From Candidatus Marinacidobacterales bacterium (GTDB taxonomy: Bacteria; Acidobacteriota; Vicinamibacteria; Marinacidobacterales; SMYC01): a stretch of 64,000 bases of DNA. The DNA lies in the NCBI GenBank assembly GCA_965237955.1, contig OZ250169.1:1152001-1216000 (forward strand), in the 5' to 3' direction. This document shows, piece after piece, positions 2,926 through 46,078 of this stretch. Position 1 is the first letter of the stretch. Every line of letters starts with the position of its first letter. The notes below the pieces were generated by a model that did no database searches, was not told the origin of the DNA, and saw only the letters and a list, made by a program, of their open reading frames with translations. The translations under genes were made by a program, and so were the position numbers.

Positions 2926-3200
2926 CCCGGAAAATTCACGAAATAGGAAAAGCAAAAGCCTCTACGTGACAGAAACTTGTGAACGAAGCGTTCACCACGA
3001 AGAAGGCTTTTTGCTGGACCGAAGATTCCGCAACACAGTGTTGGTTGTTTCCCGACCTTTCCCCAAAGAAAGTTCTCGTTCAGCTCGACGGGGATCGTAA
3101 GAGCTCAGACGGTGCCGCAGTGCTGTTGATGGCGATCGACGAGCGTCTGCAGCTGAGTCGGCGACTGCCGAAGTGTTGGCGAGATACCAGGTAATCCGGG
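2926..3200 (+). mobile_element. IS1380-family remnant (left end plus transposase N-terminal fragment)
   Basis: TQCWLFPDL..KKVLVQLDG..KSSDGAAVLL.AIDERL.LSRRL resembles an IS1380 N-terminus; begins CCCGGAAAATTCAC. Confidence 0.7.
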
Positions 3201-3268
3201 AAAGTTTTCTTCGAACAATTCCCGGAAGCACTTCACAGGGCTGCTTTCTGGGAGCAGAATACTTCGGT

Positions 3269-4378
3269 ATGCGCCCCCGCTGGATTGCATCGGCCGGTTT
3301 CGACCTCGGGCTCATCATCGGGCCGCCGGTCGCCGCCGTGCTTCTGGTCTTGGCTTTGCCGGCCATGCGGTCCGAGGAGACCCCGGTCTGGGGCTGGGTG
3401 CTCTTCGTTGTCTTCATAGACGTGGCGCATGTCTACGCATCGCTGCATCGGACCTATTTTCAGCCGGACGAATTCGCCCGCAGGAGACTCTTCTACCTGG
3501 CGACGCCTCTGGCGTGCTTTCTGGGAGGCGTCGCGCTCTACAGTCTCGGCTACCAGGTGTTCTGGAGGGTTCTTGCCTACATCGCCGTTTTTCATTTCGT
3601 CCGTCAGCAGTATGGCTTCATGATGGTTTACCGTCATCGCGCGGGTGAGCACTCCCCGCGCGAAGCGCTCCTGGACAAGTGCGCCATCTACGCGACCATG
3701 GTCTACCCCCTGGCGTTGTGGCACCGGGATCCGTCATCCCGAAACTTTCAGTGGTTCGTCGAAGGGGATTTCGTCCAACTGCCGGAATGGGTCGCAACCG
3801 GGGCCGTTGTCTTCTATACGGCATCACTGCTTTTCTTTGCGGCCCGCCAGGTACAGGTTTTCGCCCTCGCGGGAACCGTGAACTGGGGCAAGATCGGCAT
3901 CGTGGGCTCCACCGCTGCTGTCTGGTATGTCGGTATCGCTCTCCTGAATTCCGACTTTGCGTTCACCGTGACGAACGTTGTCGCGCACGGAGTCCCGTAC
4001 ATGGCCCTGGTGTGGCTCTACGGTCGCCGCCGCTGGGCAGGTGATCCTTCCTGGCGGGGAACGATTCATCGTCCCGTAGGCGTCGGTTTGTTCGTCGGCC
4101 TCTTGCTCGCTCTCGCCTACATCGAGGAGGGCCTGTGGGAGCTCTTCGTCTGGCAGGAGCACGCCGAGGTTTTCCTGGGGATGGTTTTGAATTTTGAAGT
4201 GCCTTCCATGGCCCTGACCATCCTCGTACCCCTGCTCACGGTTCCACAGGCGACACACTACATCCTTGACGCCAAGATCTGGAAGTTCGACGGTTCGAAT
4301 CCGAATCTCCATTACTATCTTTTCCTCGAGGGTGAGGTGCCCCAGGCTGGCTCGGAGTCGAAGGTCGGAGGTCGATAG
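3269..4378 (+). CDS. Polytopic membrane protein of unknown function with His motifs
   Basis: About 9-10 hydrophobic segments; DVAHVYASL, FHFVRQQYG, AHGVPY, THYILD. Confidence 0.8.
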   Translation: MRPRWIASAGFDLGLIIGPPVAAVLLVLALPAMRSEETPVWGWVLFVVFIDVAHVYASLHRTYFQPDEFARRRLFYLATPLACFLGGVALYSLGYQVFWRVLAYIAVFHFVRQQYGFMMVYRHRAGEHSPREALLDKCAIYATMVYPLALWHRDPSSRNFQWFVEGDFVQLPEWVATGAVVFYTASLLFFAARQVQVFALAGTVNWGKIGIVGSTAAVWYVGIALLNSDFAFTVTNVVAHGVPYMALVWLYGRRRWAGDPSWRGTIHRPVGVGLFVGLLLALAYIEEGLWELFVWQEHAEVFLGMVLNFEVPSMALTILVPLLTVPQATHYILDAKIWKFDGSNPNLHYYLFLEGEVPQAGSESKVGGR

Positions 4379-32612: not shown

Positions 32613-33792
32613 TTACTGAGTCGCAACGCGGATGATGGCGGCTAGTCTTTGCTCTACGTCGTCCTCGGTGGTGGCCCAGGAGGAGACGCTGATGCGCATG
32701 GCGGCGTTCCTTTCCAGGTCGTGCCGCTGCACCAGCACGTGCCGTCCTGTTGCACCGCCGTGATGACCTCCTGGGTGCGCTCGGCACTTCCGAAAGAAAC
32801 GAGAACCTGATTGAGCACGACGTCGTTCAGAATCTCGAAACCGGCGTCCCTCAGTCCATCGGCAAAGCGTTGGGCGTAGCGGCAGTTTCGATCGACGAGG
32901 TCCGCGAGACCGGAGCGACCCATCGACGCGAGCGCCGCCCAGATCTCGACGCCGCGTGCGCGGCGCGACGATTCCGGCGTGTAGTCGCACGGTTGGCGCT
33001 CGTAGCTCTCGGGGAGATAGGCGGCGGTGATCGATAGCGTGTTCCGTGCGGCGTCGGGATCGCGATAGAGCGCGAGACCTGCGTCGTAGGGAACGTTGAG
33101 CCACTTGTGGAGATCCGTCGCGATCGAATCCACGTTGGCAATCCCATCGACGAGATGCGCGTGCGTCGGCGAAGCTTTGGCCCAGAGACCAAACGCCCCA
33201 TCGACGTGTACCCACGTGTCGTGATCGCGCGCGATCTCCGTACCGATTTTATCGATGCGATCGAAGCTCCCCGTGTTGACGTTACCTGCCTGCAGGCACA
33301 CGATGCTCGGTCTGGATAGTTTCGGAATCGCATCGGCCTTCATCCGACCTTGATCGTCGACGGGTACTTTGGTGACGCGTTCGCGACCGAAACCGGCGAG
33401 CGCCAACGCTTGGAAAAGAGTCGTGTGTGCCTCCTCTCCAACGACGACTTGCACCTCGGGCGCGCCGAAGAGTCCGTTGGCCTCGACATCCCATCCAGCT
33501 CGTTTCAACACCGCGTGTCGTCCGGCGACGAGGCCCGAGAAATTTCCCATCGTCGTGCCGGTGACGAACCCGCCTCCCCACGTATCGGGGAGGTCGAGAA
33601 TGTCGCGGATCCAAGACAAAGCGACGTTCTCCAACGCCGCACTTCCTGTGGCGGCACTGGATCTTCAGGAAGCGGCACGCTGAGCTCGCTCAGCCGGGCG
33701 ACCGCGTCGTCGCCCGGCTGAACGGGTCGAATAGAAAGTGATTCGAGGTAGCGAACCGAGCGAGCGTGGGCGTCCGCAAGCAGCTCTTTCAT
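32613..33792 (-). pseudogene. Group II PLP-dependent decarboxylase with internal deletion and frameshifts
   Basis: HVDGAFG, DLHKWLNVPYD; N-terminus (ATG 33792) and C-terminus (AAMRISVSSW) lie in different frames. Confidence 0.85.
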
Positions 33793-33872
33793 GGCGCCGC
33801 GATTGTAGACAAAAAAGGGCCACACGGCCTTCCGGAGGGAAAGCGATGGGTTGAGAGACCGCGAGCGTCCGG

Positions 33873-34121: not shown

Positions 34122-34963
34122 ATGCGCGTTAGCTATGACGTCGTGCCCCGCCGGCCATTTTCGCTCGCCCGGACCGCAGCCCGTCTCGCCCGGTTTCCGG
34201 AGCTGGTGGACCGGTTTCGCGACGGGACGTACCAGCGACTTCTGTTTGTAAAGCGCGCGCCGGTGCTGATGACCGTCAACCAGGAGGGTCCTCCCTCGAG
34301 AGCTTCGCTTCACGTCACCCTCACCGGTGAGGTGGCACGCGCGCCCGAGGCGAAGCGCGACGCCGGTAACGTCCTGGACAAGGTGCTTGGTGCGTCGACG
34401 GACGTACGCCCGTTCTACCGCTCCTTCGGAAAGGACCCGTTGCTCGGTCCACTGATTCGCAGACATTCGGGCCTGCGTGTTGCGGGGCGGGTTTCCGTTT
34501 GGGAGACCCTGCTTCAGATTGTTTTGTCCCAGCAAATCAACCTGGCGCTCGCGCACGGTATCTTGTCGGATCTCGTCGAGAGCTACAGCCGCCGCGCGCG
34601 ATTCGACGGGGAACGCTACTACGCCCCCCCGACGACGCGCCGTTTTTCGAAACTCACCGTAAACGAGCTCCGTGAGCACCGCTTGAGCGGGTCGAAGGCG
34701 CGAACGTTGTTGGGTCTCGCGAAGGCGTTCGAAGCCGGCGATATCTCGGAGGCCATGTTCGAGGCGATGGATGACGAGAGCGCCGTCGAGTTTCTAACAT
34801 CGTTCAAGGGCGTCGGCCGATGGACCGCCGAGTTCACGCTTTTGCGAGGTCTCTCGCGTTTGGACGTTTTTTCCTGCAGGCGATCTCGGAGTTATCAAGT
34901 ATCTTCCTCAGAGATTGCTCGGTCGCAACAAGCCTACGAGCGAGGACGAGATGCGACGGTTTG
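34122..34963 (+). pseudogene. alkA: AlkA-type DNA-3-methyladenine glycosylase, frameshifted and truncated by IS5 sequence
   Basis: LSQQINL, HhH FKGVGRWTAE, DVF then frameshift in a T-run near 34870 (PAGDLG in the next frame). Confidence 0.85.
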
Positions 34964-35657
34964 CGCCGCCGGCGTCGTATGCGGTGTCAGCTCTGGCCGA
35001 TGAGATGGGACTGTCGATCTGTCCGACAAGCGATGCAACCCGCGATGAATCGCGGGCTCTTTTGCTCGTCAGCTCGCCGGCGACGACTTCGCCAGTCTGC
35101 TCGTCGACACACAGATGGAGCTTGCGATAGTCCCTGCTCTTTGGTGCTCTGCGCAGCTGGCCGGCGTGGACAGCGAGACCGCTGCTGTCGATCAAGATGT
35201 GCAACGGCGTCTTCTGCTTGTCTTGGTAGAAGGGGACCTTACCCAGCTTCGCCTTGCGCCTCGAGATCGTGGTGTGATCGGGCACATCATTGTCTAGCTT
35301 CATCAGAGCGAACAACGATCGCAGCAATCCCTCGCTCTGCCTAGATGACAGATGAAACACCATGCCCAGGGTGACAGCCGTCTCGATGGCGTGGTTCGAG
35401 TACTTGCGTTGACGGCCCGGTTTCCTCCTCCTCGGCCGGGGCGCGTCCCAGTTCACAAGCTTGCCGGCGGTGAGCGAGATCCAGACGGTCAGGCTCCCGC
35501 GGTTGCGTAGACCCGCCTCATATTCACGCCAATTCCTCACGCGATAGGCCTTCTTCACATACTTCCGCTGAGTGCGTTTGAAAATGCTCATGGGGAACCT
35601 CGAATCCGTGAGTAAAGGACAATTGTGGACCGAGATCGCGAGTTGTGCACCAAGGCA
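34964..35657 (-). mobile_element. IS5 family (IS903 group) partial copy A: left end plus 694 bp
   Basis: Near-identical to 47175..48261; IR at 35640-35657. Confidence 0.95.
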
Positions 35658-35979
35658 ACGAGAAGGCGCGTATCCGTGCGTGGTACGCTGTTTCTTCCTC
35701 GCCTTGGAGACTTTTTATCTCACCGTGCTCGTAGAGAAGCTCCGCGACGACGATACATTTGCCGGCATCGAGGCTGCCGCCGGGGCTGAAGAGGGTGAGG
35801 ATCTGATCGACAGGAATGGCAAGCAACGTTTCGACGTCGAGGCCTACGATGTTTTTGGCCGCCTCGGCGATGGCGAGCTCGGCTTCGTCGTACCGTTTGG
35901 CTTTCTTGAACGTGAGGACCGCGCCCAGGGTCTTGGCGAGCTGCTCGACGAGCCGGAGGATGTAGTCGCGCTGGAACAC
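35658..35979 (-). pseudogene. DUF6483-like protein, 3' truncated by IS
   Basis: FQRDYILRLVEQLAKTL N-terminal motif. Confidence 0.65.
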
Positions 35980-35984
35980 GCCGT

Positions 35985-36124
35985 CTAGTGGGTCAACGCA
36001 TAAATAATGTAGTTGACGCCGAGTTTGTAGCCTTCGTTGGAGAGCTCGATGGGGTAGTACCCGTGTTCGGACCACTCCCAGTACTCGCCGATATCGTTGT
36101 TGAAGTTGGCGACCACTTGGACGC
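35985..36124 (-). pseudogene. C-terminal fragment of a DUF4159-like protein
   Basis: Manual translation VVANFNNDIGEYWEWSEHGYYPIELSNEGYKLGVNYIIYALTH-stop. Confidence 0.7.
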
Positions 36125-36686
36125 CGAGCCGCCGGCCGAGCTGGAGGTTGAGCTAGAACGAGCACTTCGCGAGCACGACACTGTGTTTCGAGACGAGCTC
36201 GCTCCGGACGCGCCCGAGCTCGCAATCGACGCGGCCCATTGGGGCGCCAAAAAGCTGTATCAATCGTGCCAGCTGCTGACGATGCGGGATGCGCCGCCGG
36301 CCGTCGCCCACGACACGCTCTTGGACCCGTACGATGGGCCTCGTGGGCCCGAAACGGAATACTCCGTCGATCTCACCCTCGCGTACTTGCCGAGTTTGTT
36401 CCACCTCGCTGAGCGGGTGGCGCCGGACGACCCCGTCCTCGACGCGGTGCGACAGCTCGCGTCGGAGTGGCCGCTTTCGTCCGTGGGGATTTCCGGCATC
36501 GATTGCCCGACTCGGTTGTTGTTTTGGGAGAATCACAGCCTGCGGACGCTCTACGTCGACCGCTTGCTCGAGACCCGCGACCTGACCCGTCTAGAGGATC
36601 CGCTCGTTGCGCGCACCACTCAAGCGGCGCTCGGTGCGTATCCCGAGCTCGAGCCCAAGATCATGGAGTTCCTGAACGCCTCATGA
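36125..36686 (+). pseudogene. MoxR ternary system component (bpX4-like), 5' truncated
   Basis: AAHWGAKKLY, YSVDLTLAYLP, DDPVL, WPLSSVG, LRTLYVDR, ALGAYPEL; ATGA overlap with MoxR. Confidence 0.65.
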
Positions 36687-37825
36687 CCGAATCCCTCGCT
36701 TACGGCAAGCGCTTGCGTGACGAAGTCCTCGAGCCGATGAAGATCGCTTTCGTAGCCAAGGACGAGATCATCGATCTGCTCGGCATTTGTCTCGTCGGCG
36801 GTCAGAACTTGTTCTTGCTCGGCCCTCCGGGGACGGCGAAGAGCCTGCTCGTGCACGATTTGAGCGCGAGGCTTCGGGGCCAAACGTTCGACTATCTGCT
36901 CACGCGGTTCACCGAGCCGAACGAGCTCTTCGGACCGTTCGACATTCGCAAGCTCAGGGAAGGCGAGCTCATCATCAACACCGAAGGCATGTTGCCGGAG
37001 GCGTCGCTCGTGTTCCTCGATGAGCTCTTGAACGCCAACAGCGCCATTCTCAACAGCCTGTTGATGGCACTCAACGAGCGTATCTTTCGGCGGGGCCGGG
37101 AGACGCGCGCGTTGAAAGCTCTCATGTTCGTGGGCGCGAGCAACCACACGCCCGAAGACGACGCGTTGAAAGCGCTCTACGATCGGTTCTTGATGCGAGT
37201 GCATTGCGACAACGTCGCCGAGGAACGGCTTCCCGAAGTGTTGCACGCAGGATGGAAGCTCGAGGCCGGCCGTCCGGCGGAAGCGGCGTTCGGGTTCGAC
37301 GAAGTCGAAGCGCTCCAGCGCTTGCTCCCGCTGGTCGATCTCGCACCGATTCAAAAACGCTACGTCGAGCTCGTGCACCGCATCCGTCAGGCCGGAATTC
37401 CCGTGTAGGACCGCCGTGCGGTGAAGCTCCAAAACGCGATTGCCGCGAGCGCGATCCTGTGCGGCCGGCTCGACGCGCGGATGACCGACCTGTGGGTATT
37501 GCGGTTCACATGGGAAACGGAAGAGCAGCAAGAAGTCCTCCGCGAGCTGGTCGAGCAAACTCTCAGAGATCTCGCGATGGACGAGGCCGACCACCCGCGG
37601 GCGCGTGCCGGAGACGAGCCCGACGCGGAAGAGCTCGCGCGCGAGCTCGCGGGGATCGCGCAGCAAATCGATCAGAATCAAAACTCCAGTGAAGACCGGC
37701 TCTATCTTCGAGACCGCCTCTCCATCCTCGACGGTCGTTGCCAGTGGGTGAGCGACACCGACAAACGGGAGCTTCTCACCGGGCAAGTTTCGGAGCTTTG
37801 GAAGAAACTCCCGGAGCTCGCCTAG
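36683..37825 (+). pseudogene. MoxR/RavA-type AAA+ ATPase with in-frame TAG at 37406-37408
   Basis: GPPGTAKS, YLLTRFTEPNELFGP, FLDE, NSAILNSLL, GASN, ALYDRF; frame continues GIPV*DRRAVKLQ. Confidence 0.88.
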
Positions 37826-37876
37826 CAGCATGCGTCTGCGAAAAGCGAAGAAAGAATCCACGCCGAAGGCGTTTCA

Positions 37877-37900
37877 CTTTGCGCCTTTGCGCCTTTGCGT
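37877..37900 (+). repeat. Three tandem CTTTGCGY octamers
   Basis: CTTTGCGC CTTTGCGC CTTTGCGT, with degenerate copies to about 37929. Confidence 0.75.
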
Positions 37901-37935
37901 TGTTTTTTGCCTTTGCTCTCTGCGGTGAATAAGAA

Positions 37936-38675
37936 GTGCCGAGCTGGGCTTTGTCGTTGCGCCGGTCGCAGGCGAAGGCTCTTGCCAGACTCCACAACGT
38001 CGCCGACGTGCGTATCGGTGATTTGGGGGAGCTCGTGTGGGCGCGCGGCATCGGAACCGAGAGTGAAGTCGAGCACATCCTGACTCGGGTGCCGTCGAGT
38101 CGTTTCTTCGAAGTTGTGCATCACGACCGTTTGCGACCGAGAGGTCGACTGTTGCCGACCGCAAGGCTCCCGGACGTTCGCTGGGTACCGCTTCCAGAGT
38201 GGCTTTCCATCCGTATCCCAACTCCGGCGCTTCCGGGGGAGCTATCAGGTTCCGCCGAGCTTCGGCTCGTGGTCGACCACGCGGGCCCTACAGCGGATTC
38301 CGGCGAAGAGGTCTTCCTTTGCAAAGTCCAAGCGTTCCGAGAGTTTTTGCTGAGAAATCCTCTACACCGTCTCCGGCCGCTCCGTTTCGTCGTCAACGAC
38401 GCTCGTTCCGAAGTGCTCGTGCGCGGGAAACCGCTTCCCTCGTTCCGGGAGAGCGCTTCGTTCTCCAGGGCGGGATCGCTACTCCGGTGGGGCGAGCGTG
38501 GTCCCCACCGGTCGGCGCTAGCGTCATACGGGCTTGGCTTGGTTTGAGAGACGGCACGATGGCGCTTTGGCGAGCGGACGGCGCCGGTGGCGGCGGTGGC
38601 GGTGGCGGTATCAGTGAGATCGACGAGGATGCATTCGTTGCCGCGTCGCGGCGTGCTGGGCGGAAGCTTTGCTAG
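37936..38675 (+). pseudogene. MoxR ternary system component (bpX2-like), frameshift near 38445
   Basis: RLRPRGRLLPTARLP..RW.PL.EWL, RL.PLRF, GKPLPS then PGERF in the next frame. Confidence 0.65.
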
Positions 38676-41374
38676 AGAGCCCGGATCCTAGAGAGCGGCT
38701 CTCGTACTTCGTGCCGTCTCCTTCGTCCCCATGGCAGTGGACCAGAGACGGGAGCGTCGTCGTCTGGTACGACGGCTCCACGGTAGCCTTTCGTGAGGAA
38801 GTCGAGTCGATCCTGCACGAGCTCGCCGCCGACGGTCTTCCTCCATTCGGCGGCATCGTGTTGATCCTGGCGGCGCTGAAAGGGAAAACGCTGGACGGAT
38901 CGTGGATGCTGGGACCCGCGGTCCTCGAAGAGGTCACGTCGCTCGAGGATGTCGGCGGTCTGAGGCGTCAGATGAGCGTCCGCATCGAAAAAGCACTCGA
39001 CGAGCTCGTGGATGTCGTCGCCACGTTGTCGCTCCAGAACATCCCGGCGCTACGCGAGCCCAAGGGCAAGGCTGCGCTCGCGGAGACTCTTCTCTCGGGT
39101 GAGCGTCGTATCTGCTCTCCCGATCAGGCGCGAAGTCTCATCGACGACTTGGAGTCTGGAGCGCTCGAAGGCACGGGGTGGATGCGGCCGTCGTGGCGCT
39201 CGGCGTCGCGACTTCTGAACGACGTCGAGGCTCTCGGGCGCGGATGGAAGCGCTTCGACGCCCGCTCGTTCATGTTGCGACTTCACTCGGGCCTGGACGA
39301 GCTTCCGCAAGAGCCCAAAACAGACGCGATCGCCGCGTCGGTGAAAGCACGGCGGCTCCTGGCCGAGCTCGAGAACGACGAAGGGTTTTCCGGTCTGGCG
39401 AAGCTGACGCGCAACCTGATGGCGGCGATCTACTTGCCTCATCGGGTGCTGCCCCGAGACGAAGCTCCGAGCGGGGGATTCGCAGATATCTCTAACCGTG
39501 GCTCGCTCGACCGGCTGCTTCTGAGTGAGTTGGCGCACGACGATTTGACCCTCGCGGTACGTGTGGCGTTGAACGAGGCGCTCTGCGTCAAGCGCGAGCC
39601 GCCGGGAGAAAAGCCCGAAGGTAGGTTCTCGGTGCTCTTGGACACCGGGCTACGGTTGTGGGGCGTGCCGCGCGTGTACGCCACCGCGGTGGCGCTCGCG
39701 CTCGTGGCGGTTCAATCGCGCAAACGAGAAGTCGCGATCTTTCGCGCGCGAGGTGCTCACGTCGAGGAAGTCGATTTGTTGACCCGCGAAGGGTTGACGG
39801 AGCATTGGGGGATCCTGGGAACGGAGCTCCATCCGGGACGCGCGCTCGCCGATTTCGTGTCACGGCAGAAGCGCGACGGTGGCGACGAAAGTGTCGTCGT
39901 CACCGAGGCCGACGCGGCCGACGATCCCGAGTTCCGTTGGTGCTTGCGCACGCAAGATCTCGAGAAGCTCTATCTCGCGACCGTTGCACGCTCGGGTCGT
40001 TTCCGCCTGCTCGAGTACCCTGGGCTCGATAGGAAACCGCTGTCGGATGCGACGCTCGACCTCGACGAGATCCTGCCGTCCGAACGTACTACGACCAGCC
40101 CCGTTCTCGATCCCAATTACGACCCCGACCTCCCGGTGATTCTGGCAGTGCGGCCTTTTCCGTTTCTGTTTCCAGTGCGCGGCCGGGTGCAGCACGTCGT
40201 CAACGACGCGAGCGGCGACGGAGTCTGCGCCATGCGCGACGGGCGCTTGCTCGTTTGGTCGGGACGAAAACACGGAGCCTGCCAGCTCACCGCGGAGCTT
40301 CCGCGAGGCAAGACCGTCCTCATCGAGAGAACCGAGAACGAGGTCATCCTCGTCAAGTTCCTCCACCAGAGTGTCCGCATCGTCACTGTGGGGGCGGGCG
40401 GTGATGTGGCAACGGTCGAAAGAGCGCTGACGTCTGACTTGCTGGGCGCGCGCTACGAGTCGGGCGCGGTGATCTTGATTTTTGCCGACGGCGTCGAGGC
40501 GCTCGATCCGCTGACGGGCGCGCTTATCTCCGAGGTCGATACCGGCGACAAGCTTTGGGCGCGCGGGCGGTATTTCGCCGGCAACGGCTGGCACGCGTTG
40601 ACGTGGGACGGATTGGCGCTCGCGCTCGTGCCGGTTCGCATCGAGCCGTTTGAGGGTTTTCAGCCGGAAGACGTCATTCAAGTCTTCGACAGCCTGGCGC
40701 ACGAGGGTCCGCTCGTCCTCGTGCGTGGACATGGCGTCAGGAGCGCGACCGGCGAGCTCTTGCTCGGAGGTGACGTCGCCTACGTTGAAGGTATCTCTGC
40801 CGACGGCAGTCGCGTGTTGGCGAACGCGGCCGACGGTTCGTATCTCTGTTTCGATCTCGAGAAGCGCAAATTGAGAAAACTGGCGGTGTCTCCTGGTCGT
40901 TGGCTCGACGCGCGCGCGGCTTACGTCCCCACGCGGAGTTTGAGGCGTCGTTTTACCCACGTGACCGCGACCATCGACGGACGGTTCGAGCTTCGCTCGC
41001 CCAAAGGCCAGTGGCTCGGGATGCATGTGCCCGGGCGCGGTGTGATCCATCTGACTCCGCGACAACACGGCGCGACAGGACCGACGGTCGGATTCGTTCC
41101 ACGACGGACGTCCAAGCGATTCGGCTGCGAGCTCGCCACGGCGACGTGGAACGACGGAACGCGCGCGTATTGGGATAGCCGCGGGCTGTTACATCTGAAG
41201 TCGAGCGATCCCGACATCGAGGAGGTGAGCCTGGTCGTAGGCGAGTGGGAGGTCGCCGCGTGGTGCTCGGACGGAACGATTTGCGGCCCGAAGTTTTTCA
41301 CCGGACGCGAAGATACGGAAACCGCCGAGAGCATGCTCGAAAAGATCGCGCGCATCGTGAGGCGGATCTCATGA
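38669..41374 (+). CDS. MoxR partner with degenerate vWA domain and beta-rich C-terminus (bpX0/bpX1-like)
   Basis: GLPPFGGIVL, GGFADISNRGSLDRLLLSELA, VLLDTGLRLWGVPR, DSRGLLHLKS. Confidence 0.78.
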   Translation: MLESPDPRERLSYFVPSPSSPWQWTRDGSVVVWYDGSTVAFREEVESILHELAADGLPPFGGIVLILAALKGKTLDGSWMLGPAVLEEVTSLEDVGGLRRQMSVRIEKALDELVDVVATLSLQNIPALREPKGKAALAETLLSGERRICSPDQARSLIDDLESGALEGTGWMRPSWRSASRLLNDVEALGRGWKRFDARSFMLRLHSGLDELPQEPKTDAIAASVKARRLLAELENDEGFSGLAKLTRNLMAAIYLPHRVLPRDEAPSGGFADISNRGSLDRLLLSELAHDDLTLAVRVALNEALCVKREPPGEKPEGRFSVLLDTGLRLWGVPRVYATAVALALVAVQSRKREVAIFRARGAHVEEVDLLTREGLTEHWGILGTELHPGRALADFVSRQKRDGGDESVVVTEADAADDPEFRWCLRTQDLEKLYLATVARSGRFRLLEYPGLDRKPLSDATLDLDEILPSERTTTSPVLDPNYDPDLPVILAVRPFPFLFPVRGRVQHVVNDASGDGVCAMRDGRLLVWSGRKHGACQLTAELPRGKTVLIERTENEVILVKFLHQSVRIVTVGAGGDVATVERALTSDLLGARYESGAVILIFADGVEALDPLTGALISEVDTGDKLWARGRYFAGNGWHALTWDGLALALVPVRIEPFEGFQPEDVIQVFDSLAHEGPLVLVRGHGVRSATGELLLGGDVAYVEGISADGSRVLANAADGSYLCFDLEKRKLRKLAVSPGRWLDARAAYVPTRSLRRRFTHVTATIDGRFELRSPKGQWLGMHVPGRGVIHLTPRQHGATGPTVGFVPRRTSKRFGCELATATWNDGTRAYWDSRGLLHLKSSDPDIEEVSLVVGEWEVAAWCSDGTICGPKFFTGREDTETAESMLEKIARIVRRIS

Positions 41375-41384
41375 GGTCTCTCCA

Positions 41385-44171
41385 GTGATAGTGACACGAG
41401 CCGATCTCACCCTCCGGCGTTTCGAGACGCCGCTCCGGCCCGCGACCGCGTGGCTTCTCGGTGGAGCGGACCCGGCGTCGTGGCTCGAGGAGATTGCCCG
41501 GTGGCGCGTGCCCGATTCGAAGCAGGAGGCGTTGACGCTCTACGTGATGCCTGGGGTCGTTGGCGCGCTCGTGGCCGTCCCGCCGGAAACGCTCGTGAAA
41601 ATGAAGCCGTCGGGAGCTGCGTATGCTCGGCTCGGGGAGCGTTTGTTTCTGCCGGTCGATGCCGCCCTCGAGCCGCAGCTGTCGTTGCATGATCTCGAGC
41701 CGTTGCTGCGGCACGACGTGTCTGTGTTGCACCCAGGACTCGGTTGGGTGGGCTTCAGCGCCGAGCAAGGTCTCCATCCGTCCAACTTGATCGGGTTTCC
41801 GACGCTGGCGCCGGGTCGATGGCGTGAGCCTTCGGTGGGGCTTCGGTGGAATGCCCGTATTGTTTCGGTGTCGCTCGCGGCGCCGGTGTCGTTCGAGGAG
41901 TTCTTCGAAGAGCAGCAAGACGACATCGGCTCGTTCTCCATCGACGAGATTCCGCCCGCACCGAACGAGCCGGGCGAGGGTTTTGTCCAAGATCTGAAAC
42001 GAAAGGCCCTGGGACCCGTCGCGCGCGGGGCACGAGCGCTGAGCTCTCGCATGCCGAGTGGAGCGGATGCTCCGACGTGGGTCGATCGTCTCGAGGACTG
42101 GGCCAACCAAAAACTGCGTCACGTGTCGGAAGAGCTCGAGCGTCTGCGCAACAAAGAGATTCACCGTCTTCTCGAGTTGCTCGAATCGGATGCCGAGAAA
42201 GGTCTACAACACGCGTTGCCCCTCGGGGGCGGTACCCACCGCGGCCTCGCACCGCCGGTTGGACGTTTGACGGCGCGGCGCGTCGATTTCCAGCTAGGTG
42301 CGCTCGGAGGCGGCCGAGCACTCGATCCGTGGGATGTGCCGTACGATCTGAAGCAGAAGCTTCTGGCGAAATATCGCGATCTCGCGAACCGCGAGAAGCG
42401 CCTTAAGCGGTATCGACGAGCGGCGTACGTCTATGCAGAGCTCATCGGCGACCTCGAAACCGCGGCCGCAGTGCTCGAGGAGGGGAAGCACTTTCGCGAA
42501 GCCGCCGAAATCTACCGAAAACATTTGCACAAGCCTCTGCTTGCGGCGCGCACGTACGAGAGCGGGGGCCTCTTTCGCGAGGCCGTCGAAATCTACGAAG
42601 AGCTCGAGCTTTGGGAAGAAGCCGGCGACGTCTATTGCAAGATGGAGCAGTCGGCGAAAGCCCGGGCCGCGTTCGAGAGAGCACGCGACCACAAGCTTTC
42701 CTCTCGCGACCGCATCGGTGCATCCCGTATCGTGGAGACCAAGCTCGACGACGTCGAGGGCGCGCTCGAGATCGTTGAAGAGGGTTGGCCCGACTCCCGG
42801 CAGGCAAGTGATTGCCTGAAGCGGCAGCTCGGTATCCAGGCGTGCGAAGGGCTGCACGAGAGGACCGAGACGCTTTTGAAACGGCTCGCGTCGGAGACGA
42901 TTCCGCCTCATTTGATCACGAGCCTGGTGGCGTGCCTTTCGACGACGGCAACGTCTTATCCCAACGCGCGCGTTCGTCACCAAGCGGCGGATCTCACCCG
43001 GCGGAAGATATCCGGACGATTGGGAAAAGTGTCGCGCGACGAGGCGGCTCGGCTACTCGAAAGCCTGTACCGGCTCGCTCCCGAAGACCGCCTGCTCGCC
43101 CGCGATGGCGGTCGCTATCTCACCACGAAAGAGCGTCGCCAACCGAGGCCGCGCCGGCGGCGCGGCTCGAGCCCGGAGCCGGAGCTCGTCCGCTCGATCG
43201 AGCTCCCGAGCTCCGTCCGCTGGCTAGATATCCAATCGACGGGAAGCCTCTTCTTCGCGCTCGCGTACGCGCGGGACGAGATTCAGCTCTACCGTGGGAA
43301 TTGGAGCGGTGGGTTCGAGCACCTCGTCTGGCCGTTCGGAAACTCGGCGCAGGAGGTGCCGGTTCGAGGAACCATGCCGGTGCAGATGGAGCTCGACGCA
43401 ACCGGGCACCGGAACGTCATTCTGCGGCACATGATGGGACGAGAGCTTCCGCTGAAGGTGTTTCCCGTCTCACGGGACGTCATCGAAGCCGAAACCGTCG
43501 CCGGCGATCCGGGATGGCTTCCACGCGGAACGCTCGCGCTTTCGAACCTGTCACAGACTTGGGTCGCGCTGCGCCACCACGCCGAGCGTCTCATCATCAG
43601 TACTTACAACTACGAGGGTTCGCACCTCGCGGACATCGCTGACTGGGAGCGGCCAGAAGAGGGGCTCCACATGACGTTGGCGTGCCAGAACCACTACATC
43701 GTCGTGGGGCAGACTCATGAGCGGGAGTCCGCGGAGCTTCTGGTGTTCAACGTCGAGCGAAGCCAGCAGCTCGCGGATCCCGACACGTTTCTATCGCCGC
43801 AAAAATTCGTGATGGAGCCTGCGATTGTCAGCCTGCGCGTCGCTCAGCCGTTCACACGCAGCCGTGTCGCGATGACCATGCTCGAGGGCGTAGCGCTTCA
43901 CTGGCTCGATAGCGGCCAGGCGTACATCATCTCTTCCGATCTCGAGAAGCCGAGAGTGAACATTCTCAGAAATGGGTCGCTCGTCGTCGTTTCCGGAAAA
44001 ACCGTGCGCGTCTATCGAACCGACGACAGAGAGCCGACGTTGACGTCCGAGATGGAGCTTCCCGCGCAACACGGACAAGTCCTCGACGTCGTTCCCGGCT
44101 ACGCTCCGAACCAGTTCGCAATCTTCACGACGGACGGTCGGATGCTGGTGTTTGCTCTTCCGTCCGGGTGA
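41385..44171 (+). CDS. MoxR ternary system protein: N-terminal bpX3-like domain, TPR-like repeats, beta-propeller-like tail
   Basis: LFLPVDA.LEP, LHPGLG, ELERLRNKEI.RLL, YRRAAYVYAELIGD, A..YE.GG...EA...YEEL repeats. Confidence 0.78.
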   Translation: MIVTRADLTLRRFETPLRPATAWLLGGADPASWLEEIARWRVPDSKQEALTLYVMPGVVGALVAVPPETLVKMKPSGAAYARLGERLFLPVDAALEPQLSLHDLEPLLRHDVSVLHPGLGWVGFSAEQGLHPSNLIGFPTLAPGRWREPSVGLRWNARIVSVSLAAPVSFEEFFEEQQDDIGSFSIDEIPPAPNEPGEGFVQDLKRKALGPVARGARALSSRMPSGADAPTWVDRLEDWANQKLRHVSEELERLRNKEIHRLLELLESDAEKGLQHALPLGGGTHRGLAPPVGRLTARRVDFQLGALGGGRALDPWDVPYDLKQKLLAKYRDLANREKRLKRYRRAAYVYAELIGDLETAAAVLEEGKHFREAAEIYRKHLHKPLLAARTYESGGLFREAVEIYEELELWEEAGDVYCKMEQSAKARAAFERARDHKLSSRDRIGASRIVETKLDDVEGALEIVEEGWPDSRQASDCLKRQLGIQACEGLHERTETLLKRLASETIPPHLITSLVACLSTTATSYPNARVRHQAADLTRRKISGRLGKVSRDEAARLLESLYRLAPEDRLLARDGGRYLTTKERRQPRPRRRRGSSPEPELVRSIELPSSVRWLDIQSTGSLFFALAYARDEIQLYRGNWSGGFEHLVWPFGNSAQEVPVRGTMPVQMELDATGHRNVILRHMMGRELPLKVFPVSRDVIEAETVAGDPGWLPRGTLALSNLSQTWVALRHHAERLIISTYNYEGSHLADIADWERPEEGLHMTLACQNHYIVVGQTHERESAELLVFNVERSQQLADPDTFLSPQKFVMEPAIVSLRVAQPFTRSRVAMTMLEGVALHWLDSGQAYIISSDLEKPRVNILRNGSLVVVSGKTVRVYRTDDREPTLTSEMELPAQHGQVLDVVPGYAPNQFAIFTTDGRMLVFALPSG

Positions 44172-44178
44172 GCAACTC

Positions 44179-44556
44179 TTAGTGGTCTTCGCTCGCCATT
44201 TCTTCGAAAACGGCCAGAGCCGCCGACTGTCCGCTGGCGCCGGCTGCCCATCCCGCGTAGTGAGCGGTGTGGATCATGAGCTCCAGGATCTCTTCTTCGG
44301 TGAGCTTGTCCTCGCCGAGGCGGGCTCCGCGAAGGTGCGACTTCAGTTGATCCTGGCGCCCCTGAGTGGCGAGAAGCGCAATCGTGATGAGGCGCCGATC
44401 GCGGATGGAGAGGCCTTCGCGGGTCCAAACCTTCGCGAACAGGTGATTGATGGAGGGCTCACGAATGCCGGTGAGGGGCCGGTCCGCCGGCTCGGGCTGG
44501 CCGAGCACTTTTTCGTACATCTCGACCCCGACGGGGTCTTTTGGGATATCCGTCAT
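44179..44556 (-). CDS. Carboxymuconolactone decarboxylase family protein
   Basis: VWTREGLSIRDRRLITIA, HLRGA, EEILE..IH.AHYAGW. Confidence 0.88.
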   Translation of the reverse strand: MTDIPKDPVGVEMYEKVLGQPEPADRPLTGIREPSINHLFAKVWTREGLSIRDRRLITIALLATQGRQDQLKSHLRGARLGEDKLTEEEILELMIHTAHYAGWAAGASGQSAALAVFEEMASEDH

Positions 44557-44586
44557 GACTTGCTCCGTTCCTGTAGATGAGTTGCA

Positions 44587-44800
44587 TTAAGCCTTCGAAT
44601 ACACGGTATTGCCGCCGAGGACCGTGCGAACGATCTCGATTTCTTTGATCCCATCGGGGTCGGCGTCGTGGGGATCTTTTCCGGGTCGTCGGGTTCATGA
44701 ACTCCCAGCGCCGTTTGGCCTCTTGCGCGTCCGCCGTGCCGGATAGGGACGCGATGAAAGCGAGACAGTAGAACGCGGGCCAACGAGTGACCTTCATCAT
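44587..44800 (-). pseudogene. Chimeric relic: signal-peptide N-terminus fused to an amidohydrolase-like C-terminus
   Basis: MKVTRW...ADAQEAKRRWE joined to DPHDADPDGIKEIEIVRTVLGGNTVYSKA-stop. Confidence 0.5.
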
Positions 44801-44889
44801 GAGCTCCTCACAAACCCGAGGATTATATCGCGGCCACTCGGATACAATTGCGGCGGCTGGAAAACAAAGCGCGTTACAAGGAGGTTGCG

Positions 44890-46078
44890 ATGTCAGGTCG
44901 GTTGCGATTCAAGGTAGTGATAGCGGTCGTTGCGGCGAGCGCGGTGTTGATCGGCACGCTCTACGCTCAGGAGGGCACGGAGCCGACGCCGGTCCGGCAG
45001 AATCCAAACATCGACCGCCCGATCACGAACGAGAATTTCGACAGCGCCGTGGTCAATCTGCTCCAGCAGCTCGTGGCCGCGTACGGTCCGATCGCCAATG
45101 GCAACGACCGGCCCAATCCGTACACGCGCATCGAGCCGTGGGGAGAGCCGCCACCAGGAAACAACGGTGAGTGGGCGGCGGTGATCGGCGCGGAAGGCGG
45201 ACCCGACGGAAACCTCTACGTGCTTCACCGATGCCACTCGAACACCTGCGTCGATCGGCCGGAGCCACCGCTCGTCAAGTTGGACCCGCGAACGGGCGAG
45301 CGCCTCGATACCTGGGGCGAAGGATTGATGGCCTTCCCCGCACGGATTCCATGTCGACTACGAGGGGAACGTGTGGACCACGGACACGGGACGCGGGGAT
45401 GCAGCCGGTGGGCATCTCGTAAGAAAGTTCAGCTCCGAAGGTGAGCTTCTGATGACGATCGGACGCTCAGGGGTCGCCGGTGACACTCCGGGGCTCCTCC
45501 GCGAACCAACCGATGTCGTGGTCTCACCCGAGGGCACAATCTTCGTGACCGAGGGTCACCTGAAAAACGGTCCCCATGCGCGCCTCTCGAAGTTCGCGCC
45601 AGACGGATCGTTCATCGAGCGTTTCGGCAGCACAGGGCAGGGCCACCTCCAGTTCAGCGCGCCCCACGCCATCGCGTTGGATACCCAGGGGCGTCTTTTC
45701 ATCGCCGACCGCAACAACAATCGGATCATGATCTGGGACCAGGAAGGGAACTACATCGATCAGTGGACTCAGTTCGGTCGGCCGAGCGGCGTGTACATCG
45801 ACCACACCGACACGATCTACGTCGCCGACTCGGAATCCTGGGGGCCTGAGAACCCAGCCTGGGAAAAAGGGATTCGGATCGGAAGCGCCAAGACCGGGCA
45901 GGTCCACTACTTCCTCGAGGATATCGAATCGCGCGACTTCGCCCACAGCGGGGCGGAAGGCATCGGCGTCGATTCTCTTGGCAATGTGTACGGGGGAGTC
46001 GTTCGCAGGCAGATGCTGGAGCGACATGAACCCCAAGCGGTGCAGCCGACCCTCGGCGCGACGTGGCCAGTTCGGTAA
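44890..46078 (+). pseudogene. Secreted NHL-repeat protein (PAL-like beta-propeller), one frameshift near 45338
   Basis: PTDVVVSPEG.IFVTEG, PHAIALD.QGRLFIADRNN, FGRPSG; FPHGFHVD split at a C-run. Confidence 0.85.

Follow-up and report, generated by a model that had tools for sequence, protein, structure and literature searches.

What is encoded between positions 36,125 and 44,171 of the window (the whole 64,000-nucleotide stretch of Candidatus Marinacidobacterales DNA analysed here), and what could it do? The locus is a five-gene MoxR-vWA-beta-propeller (bpX) cassette, present as a disrupted copy (Table 1). On balance we favour the reading that this copy is probably inactive and that its intact form likely remodels, via a RavA-like ATPase, a protein scaffold whose predicted ligand is an invader or threat signal.

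Table 1. Features of the bpX cassette and of its left flank (window coordinates)
Feature	Position	Strand	Evidence or remark
Truncated IS5-type transposase copy	34964-35657	-	Pfam DDE_Tnp_1_5; outside cassette
DUF6483-like gene remnants and presumed DUF4159-like 3′ end	up to 36124	-	Right side cut by deletion; outside cassette
Deletion junction	36117..36124	.	2,326 bp of a sister strain missing
bpX4 (predicted helical accessory protein)	36125..36686	+	Pfam PF19920, 134 bits, profile 26-197 of 202
RavA-like MoxR AAA+ ATPase	36683..37825	+	Pfam bpMoxR, 316 bits (cut-off 27)
Spacer	37826..37935	.	110 bp; contains short dispersed repeat
bpX2	37936..38675	+	Pfam PF19918 in two pieces, profile 2-167 and 161-226
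901-aa vWA component	38669..41374	+	Pfam bpX0, 71 bits; bpX1, 67 bits; open
928-aa third component	41385..44171	+	Pfam bpX3, 122 bits; open

Identity and gene order of the cassette

A Pfam scan of the locus returned, in gene order, bpX4, bpMoxR, bpX2, bpX0 and bpX1 on either side of the vWA, and bpX3. Scores of 67-316 bits against cut-offs of 24-27 exclude chance matches. The preliminary description had read five co-oriented, mostly overlapping genes of the bpX family. All five do lie on the plus strand where it placed them; overlaps are found at two of the four junctions (36683-36686 and 38669-38675), whereas gaps of 110 bp and 10 bp separate the genes at the remaining two. The family assignment is upheld by the bpX0-4 and bpMoxR matches of the HMM scan, the GPPGTAKS P-loop, the vWA followed by a propeller, and the TPR-like and propeller regions of the third component. 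Identical gene order and strand recur in 46 of the 52 related loci with room for all five genes; undisrupted copies occur, among others, in Chitinophaga pinensis (L085), Anatilimnocola NA78 (L063) and Verrucomicrobium BvORR034 (L072). The spacer repeat has 54 further blastn-short matches in the genome, and sequencing runs X6 and X8 carry one additional 21-base unit here.

The family is ‘vWA-MoxR subsystem 4’ in the computational catalogue of Kaur, Burroughs, Iyer and Aravind (2020), where an anti-invader role is considered likely (PMC7159879). By sequence the cassette is a member of this catalogued family. The link of Kaur et al. to multicellular hosts is modest in this subsystem (44/118, p 0.0094). 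According to these authors, the vWA component carries an N-terminal helical and a C-terminal beta domain in 62% of members, and some third components have a membrane segment in their N-terminal region (PMC7159879). The present locus shares with subsystem 4 a MoxR with the GxxxTAKS loop, a vWA component with helical N-terminus, divergent vWA, propeller and beta C-terminus, a third component with variable N-terminus, TPR and propeller, linked helical and alpha+beta accessory genes (bpX4 and bpX2 by Pfam) and the lack of a conventional effector. In contrast, three genes of the present copy are disrupted, its third component is devoid of a membrane segment (as in most relatives sampled), and the propeller on the vWA side is modelled with about six blades instead of about four. 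Furthermore, Acidobacteriota, the probable host phylum, is missing from the section 22 listing of Kaur et al.

Besides the ATPase, no enzymatic Pfam domain was found in the five genes, and no client or effector gene recurs among the 91 flanking genes scanned at related loci. These are mostly ordinary genes, of which few are conflict-related (e.g. KptA twice, Hen1 once); a tie to metabolic enzyme maturation finds no echo in them either, as the neighbours of related loci include no recurrent gene for a metabolic client. A conventional effector module is thus absent, as expected of the family, and the five genes constitute the whole unit, without a lost effector. The FtsH ternary system (subsystem 3 of Kaur et al. 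2020) has the same P-loop variant and also a divergent vWA, and the locus gives a weak ivWA match (E 0.0083, below cut-off); no FtsH ATPase gene occurs in the locus or in the 91 flanking genes scanned.

Architecture of the components

The MoxR ATPase has Walker A GPPGTAKS and Walker B FLDE motifs, and the solved structure nearest to its orthologue in the intact relative L090 is RavA (E 5e-39). As in the E. coli RavA-ViaA system, a RavA-like ATPase with an SDRR lid motif is paired with a vWA protein, whose pre-vWA segment is weakly similar to that of ViaA. However, the RavA match is confined to residues 28-282 of the orthologue from L090. ViaA, for its part, retains DxSxS but lacks a propeller, bpX partners are missing, and a two-gene operon stands against a five-gene unit.

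The 901-aa gene is open, full length and 79% identical to that of L090. Its product comprises the bpX0 helical region (residues 36-200), a conserved pre-vWA segment, the vWA, a propeller and the bpX1 beta domain (824-886), both Pfam domains scoring over cut-off. In the model (pLDDT 86), the vWA fold at about 314-465 matches vWA domains (Z 9.3-9.7, rmsd 3.3-3.6, 134-157 residues aligned), with MDN1-MIDAS and CMG2 at Z 9.7, and the propeller of about six blades at 499-756 matches propellers at up to Z 10.5 (rmsd 5.2, 237 aligned). By sequence, the protein has no Pfam VWA match, and a profile search against solved structures yielded no relative (best E 0.97). The degenerate MIDAS seen earlier is real: DTGLR stands at residue 325, DxGxR replacing DxSxS, and aligns to DTSGS of ViaA. 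D325 is conserved in 59/59 homologues, G327 and R329 in 55/59 each; the motif is normal for the family. Cys306 is a Tyr or Phe in 58 of the 59 homologues. Conservation peaks at residues 250-345, a region which weakly aligns to the pre-vWA and vWA of ViaA (27% over 135 columns, E 0.033).

The 928-aa gene is likewise open and full length (70% identical to L090). It encodes the bpX3 domain, a conserved helical middle, TPR-like repeats at about 320-585 and a WD40-like propeller at 600-924; the helical repeats and propeller of the model (pLDDT 85) bear out the TPR/propeller protein first proposed. The TPR_21 match (E 2e-4) is below its cut-off, Foldseek returned WD40 matches for the propeller (target TM 0.60-0.66), and the propellers of the two large proteins align weakly with each other (probability 25%). 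No membrane segment is present in the 928-aa protein (hydropathy maximum 1.69). Across aligned third components the maximum is at least 2.3 in 6/53 and below 1.8 in 41/53; a membrane segment is therefore variable among those sampled and is not taken as defining.

For bpX2, an ESM Atlas search gave no usable match. Paralogy with the bpX3 domain is not claimed given the weak profile alignments (hhalign E 0.013 with full profiles; probability 18%, E 0.0013 with cut profiles).

Predicted working of the intact cassette

In the intact cassette, the MoxR hexamer would grip the 901-aa protein at its conserved pre-vWA and vWA region, much as RavA binds ViaA in a nucleotide-dependent manner (PMC9489729). 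The degenerate MIDAS points to a vWA which may bind peptide independently of metal. The 901-aa and 928-aa proteins, bpX2 and bpX4 could form a complex whose propellers and TPRs would bind a ligand. Since the cassette has no enzyme domain, it might act by sequestration or polymerisation, or by passing a signal to a partner whose gene lies elsewhere. This reading is supported by the Pfam matches, gene order, folds, pre-vWA/vWA conservation, RavA-ViaA binding, patchy distribution, purifying selection, lesion-free sister strains and the threat sensing of the different Esr pathway (below).

The distribution is accessory and patchy: bpX4 occurs in 2/300 other genomes of the class, bpX2 in 0/400 genomes of the phylum, and a second loss of the cassette is seen in genome G014. 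The cassette is a rare acquisition of this lineage, where it decayed at least twice. Relatives were found on plasmids in two cases, both partial, and none in viral contigs; a quick MoxR tree on best-hit sampling identifies no donor. Within the cassette, dN/dS values of 0.07-0.31 indicate purifying selection before decay, the N-terminal 250 residues of the 928-aa protein being highest of the four parts (0.22-0.25). The variable beta-rich tails of the preliminary description do show the lowest conservation in the sets of 59 and 53 homologues, but when they are compared with the closest full-length relative, dN/dS reaches only 0.10-0.17, with no sign of diversifying selection.

The anti-invader role is a prediction, and literature searches found no experimental study of bpX systems. 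Esr, another MoxR/vWA/propeller pathway, has been shown experimentally to sense epibionts (10.64898/2026.09.08.750141). Esr of Actinomycetota likewise pairs MoxR and vWA with a variable propeller and responds experimentally to an antagonist. It differs by its secreted filamentous sensor, kinase/phosphatase pair, FHA output and Esx secretion; Pfam detected no secreted propeller sensor, Ser/Thr kinase or FHA output among the five genes or immediate neighbours. Against defence speak the missing effector domain, the lack of a PADLOC match (0/6 proteins at E 0.001, PADLOC-DB 2.0.0, 2023 library), the mostly ordinary flanks, the absence of diversifying selection in the tails, the modest tie of the subsystem to multicellular hosts and the lack of the sensor, kinase and FHA output of Esr, while patchiness and loss fit any dispensable function.

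A possible though less likely alternative is that the undamaged cassette serves as a chaperone for general stress or assembly, which acts in the RavA-ViaA manner on a host complex or membrane encoded elsewhere and has no anti-invader role. The nearest solved ATPase is RavA, and RavA-ViaA is tied to respiratory complexes and membrane lipids (PMC9489729); yet three accessory components have no counterpart in ravA-viaA, and the MIDAS is degenerate family-wide. The lack of an effector and of a PADLOC match, the few defence neighbours and the ordinary purifying selection would suit such a chaperone, whereas no client gene recurs in the flanks and the cassette is rare and repeatedly lost in this lineage. 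Whatever its role, the bpX family is a conserved machine of ATPase and scaffold, about which the present copy, being broken, tells little.

Lesions, sister strains and the upstream region

The preliminary description gave too little weight to the probable non-function of this copy. Three lesions indicate that the cassette is probably dead: the bpX4 start is deleted, MoxR contains a stop, and bpX2 is frameshifted. Alignment to the 204-aa protein of L090 shows that bpX4 has lost its first 18 codons together with the upstream region. In MoxR, an in-frame TAG at 37406-37408 (codon 242 of 380) takes the place of the Ser in the SDRR motif of the lid; the AAA_lid_8 match resumes at profile position 24, past the TAG, and position 37407 is C in 4/4 sister runs. 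Stop-codon recoding was rejected, as the same gene ends in TAG and relatives have a sense codon. In bpX2, one base is missing near 38442, which leads to a premature stop at 38547. The 245-aa protein once read here does not exist as an ORF: a 203-aa ORF is followed by a 78-codon tail in another frame, and the orthologues in L090, L092 and L095 are open with 240-241 aa. The extra base is present at the entire depth of X6 and X8, at 6/25.9 in X1 and at 6/9 in X2.

The break between 36124 and 36125 is real. One contig of run X12 joins both sides with 2,326 extra bases (window 36030-36124 corresponds to 614-708 of X12 record 1, and 36122-36793 to 3032-3703), and record 2 of X1 reads through the joined form, showing 0 differences. 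Three bp (36122-36124) fit both sides, inside an imperfect 8-bp microhomology; loci L092 and L093 align from 36117. The genome is IS-rich (about 100 IS matches), and a literature search on IS expansion in acidobacterial symbionts gave no match. Deletion by an IS was rejected, since about 470 bp lie between the junction and the nearest IS end and the junction has microhomology. The segment 35655-36124 has a second copy (99%) at C1:7938469-7938938, and the DUF6483 match on the left (E 0.0056) is below cut-off. A sigma-70 scan of 35500-38800 found 0 promoter-like sites against 0.4 expected. In this strain, the deletion would have taken the start of bpX4, probably together with the promoter, the stop would truncate the ATPase lid, and the frameshift would remove the bpX2 C-terminus; the remaining two genes are therefore likely silent relics.

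Sister strains in other sequencing runs are free of all three lesions, which argues for strain-level decay and not assembly error. It is very unlikely that this strain has an active cassette because the lesions stem from faulty assembly or because read-through or an internal start overcomes them. A 190-codon bpX4 could begin at an in-frame TTG at 36117, and both large genes are open; however, three different lesion types occur together, the adjoining genes also carry private indels (33565, 34867), and the TAG is a substitution, no homopolymer slip, and the normal stop of this MoxR gene. At a depth of about 20, X1 contigs show 0 differences at both the junction and the TAG, beside a minor frameshift-free allele. 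Since the window may itself derive from X1, this agreement is no independent evidence, but X2, from a second study, also has the frameshift allele (3/9, a low depth).

Near-identical strains with and without the lesions thus exist. More doubtful is the broader proposal that broken and unbroken cassette alleles segregate in a single uncultured species, probably associated with a host, both within one sample, and that a second genus of the family lost the cassette independently. If the cassette is defensive, such natural knockouts would let metagenomes tie it to a specific phage or epibiont and provide the first functional readout for bpX systems.

The idea that upstream effectors were lost at the break finds no support: the cassette begins at bpX4, and there is no conserved upstream effector, as flanking genes vary and the probably deleted gene is a membrane gene found family-wide. 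It is hardly credible that this 274-aa membrane protein was a genuine sixth component, serving as sensor or effector, whose gene went with the deletion. In its favour, the gene lies on the same strand upstream of bpX4 in 5/6 near-relative loci (L090-L094) and is missing from G000, the C-terminal part of the protein contains two hydrophobic segments, and some third components have a membrane segment according to Kaur et al.; but the gene is present in 0/80 distant loci and in 13/18 genomes of the family, 11 of them without a bpX4 match, its product has no Pfam family, and a hydrolase-like gene separates it from bpX4 in L090. In the ESM Atlas, the 274-aa protein retrieved unnamed clusters and a CBM_4_9 lead at 0.83.

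Composition and extent of the cassette

The locus at 36125-44171 is a new, broken member of a known predicted family. As the preliminary description proposed, five co-oriented genes on the + strand together fill this interval, and the bpX assignment is borne out by a Pfam scan in which bpX0-bpX4 and bpMoxR all score above their cut-offs. The same description called the genes mostly overlapping; overlap is found at two of the four junctions, whereas gaps of 110 and 10 bp separate the genes at the others. The numbering used here is that of Pfam, the term 'bpX' being absent from the eLife text of Kaur et al. The cassette is single-copy in the host genome (G000, 8.13 Mb in a single contig), which holds one bpX3 profile match and six bpMoxR matches outside the cassette, each of at most 60 bits. 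The 901-aa and 928-aa genes are open, with 79% and 70% identity, respectively, to the closest intact relative (L090, genome G006).

Cassette genes and altered neighbouring features (window coordinates)
Feature	Position	Strand	Observation
bpX4 gene	from 36125	+	Pfam bpX4, 134 bits
MoxR ATPase gene	TAG at 37406-37408	+	Pfam bpMoxR, 316 bits
bpX2 gene	one base missing near 38442	+	Pfam bpX2 in two frames, 95 + 29 bits
901-aa vWA protein gene		+	Pfam bpX0, 71 bits; bpX1, 67 bits
928-aa third component gene	41385-44171	+	Pfam bpX3, 122 bits
Presumed PLP-dependent decarboxylase-like gene	32654-33825		frameshifted; one-base difference in sister strains at 33565
AlkA-like glycosylase gene	34122-35003		frameshifted; one-base difference in sister strains at 34867
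470-bp segment	35655-36124		duplicated (99% identity) at G000:C1:7938469-7938938
Short dispersed repeat, MoxR-bpX2 spacer	37826-37935		54 further matches in genome; length varies between strains
NHL-repeat gene	44848-46078		broken over two frames

Related loci were taken as the best 80 of 509 from a MoxR search, mostly from Planctomycetota and Verrucomicrobiota. All five genes occur in the same order in 46 of the 52 loci with room for the whole cassette (the exceptions are L024, L057, L062, L073, L082 and L089). As read from sequence, these five genes make up the unit.

Three lesions in an apparently decaying genome

The bpX4 gene lacks 18 N-terminal codons relative to its 204-aa orthologue in G006. 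In MoxR, codon 242 is TAG and replaces the serine of the SDRR motif, which is common to the MoxR of the cassette and RavA and which we take to carry the sensor-II arginine. The sampled words of the window are found to 62-98% in 18 runs from eight studies with eight coded organism labels; strains were compared on contigs from seven of these runs (X1, X2, X6, X8, X12, X16 and X17). In X1, which may be the source sample, the deletion junction and the TAG are both present with 0 differences at a depth of ~20. The unbroken bpX2 allele is present there at 6 of 25.9 depth, in X2 at 6 of 9, and exclusively in X6 and X8. A sense codon occupies 37406-37408 in X6, X12, X16 and X17, with zero indels across 36030-37520. 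A single X12 contig joins 36124 to 36122 through additional sequence, so the window strain has lost 2,326 bp at this point. The X6 and X8 contigs, unbroken at the bpX2 site, show 24 gap positions across 37877-45000. Judged from these contigs, the three lesions are genuine and strain-specific.

Decay of the cassette is in keeping with the rest of the genome. Roughly 14% of the 31-mers of G000 are present at least five times (22% at least twice), and the IS5-type element adjoining the locus has ~100 matches. Among 223 G006 genes tested against G000, 118 are intact, 83 lack an orthologue, 16 are flagged broken and 6 are partial. On visual inspection, 5-6 of the flagged genes are ORFs on the wrong strand, and their removal leaves ~8% of sampled orthologues broken. 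Private indels also lie in genes near the cassette (33565 and 34867). With its strong IS expansion, its share of broken orthologues and a marker completeness of 98%, G000 looks like a genome in early decay. Its species is present in runs of several coded organisms. The duplicated 470-bp segment contains a DUF6483-like gene and the end of a DUF4159-like gene; its second copy is located close to an IS5-type transposase gene and adjoins an IS6-type one, and retains part of the DNA deleted at the cassette.

Flanking genes, distribution and origin

Possible effectors had been supposed lost upstream of the locus, a proposal that the related loci do not uphold. No upstream family recurs in more than four of the 55 loci with >3 kb upstream, and no Pfam type occurs more than three times among 91 adjacent genes (first 450 residues of each; seven internal fragments left out). 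The flanks thus give no indication of a lost effector or of a metabolic client. Such a client would count against the defence reading and for a housekeeping chaperone role; none recurs in the flanks scanned, and we regard that role as the less likely of the two.

A 274-aa membrane-protein gene lies upstream in five of six near-relative loci (among them L093:1471-2295 and L090:15441-16268) and was not found in G000, where size and synteny indicate that it probably once lay within the deleted DNA. Of the 18 family genomes 13 carry it, 11 of them with no bpX4 match, which makes a resident neighbour the likeliest reading. Its product has a probable signal peptide, two C-terminal hydrophobic segments and a weak CBM_4_9-like lead; no Pfam family matched. 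RNA-repair genes also adjoin some bpX cassettes, with KptA immediately upstream in L012 (8769-9320) and L038 (172-726) and Hen1 immediately downstream in L080 (from 17752). A common cluster of about four genes, presumably STM4011-4014-like, flanks the cassette in L018, L022 and L036 at differing positions.

With the caveat that incomplete genomes may hide genes, bpX4 is found in 2 of 300 sampled other genomes of the class, both of the same family, and bpX2 in none of 400 of the phylum. In G014, from another genus of the family, a frameshifted bpX4 is followed without a break by the final ~32 codons of bpX3 (L118:1436-2053, C484); the intervening part of the cassette has been deleted, a second, independent loss. 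An acidobacterial VWFA model gives six over-cut-off matches, versus none in 14 controls, which suggests a host in Acidobacteriota. In a quick MoxR tree (65 rows; 16 full-length rows left out), the window clade (support 100) is nested in a Verrucomicrobiota-dominated group (support 94); this would fit import of the cassette and indicates no particular donor.

Predicted structures and possible function

AlphaFold2 models of the 901-aa and 928-aa proteins have mean pLDDT of 86 and 85; domain packing is uncertain in both, given pTM of 0.60 and 0.45. The former contains a vWA fold (~314-465) matching MDN1-MIDAS and CMG2 at Z 9.7 and a propeller (499-756) at Z up to 10.5, moderate values at which several rows tie; the latter combines helical repeats with a WD40-like propeller. 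DTGLR is the family norm and aligns to ViaA DTSGS. Purifying selection acted on the cassette before it decayed (crude dN/dS of 0.07-0.31; dS against L090 near saturation). The best-conserved stretches are residues 250-345 in the vWA protein and 250-400 in the third component. Conservation is lowest in the propellers, as the earlier idea of variable sensor tails expects, but no diversifying selection is seen in the tails.

In describing the MoxR-vWA beta-propeller subsystem, Kaur et al. (PMC7159879) term it enigmatic and without a conventional effector, and infer its conflict role from variability of the third component. Direct, nucleotide-dependent binding is described for RavA-ViaA (PMC9489729), and epibiont sensing in Actinomycetota for a different MoxR-vWA-propeller pathway (10.64898/2026.09.08.750141). 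On these three grounds we lean towards a model in which the intact cassette would form a scaffold remodelled with ATP, a threat ligand being bound by propellers and TPRs. The defence role itself is a prediction: PADLOC gives no match to the cassette, the flanks hold mostly ordinary genes, and the tails carry no sign of diversifying selection.

The third components of L047, L054, L056, L077, L080 and L081 carry a strongly hydrophobic N-terminal segment, a membrane-anchored subtype, and L054 and L056 have an extra VWA gene immediately downstream. Finally, the C-terminal half of bpX2 shows weak profile similarity to the bpX3 domain (window 41385-41804; probability 18%), and the two are possibly paralogous.
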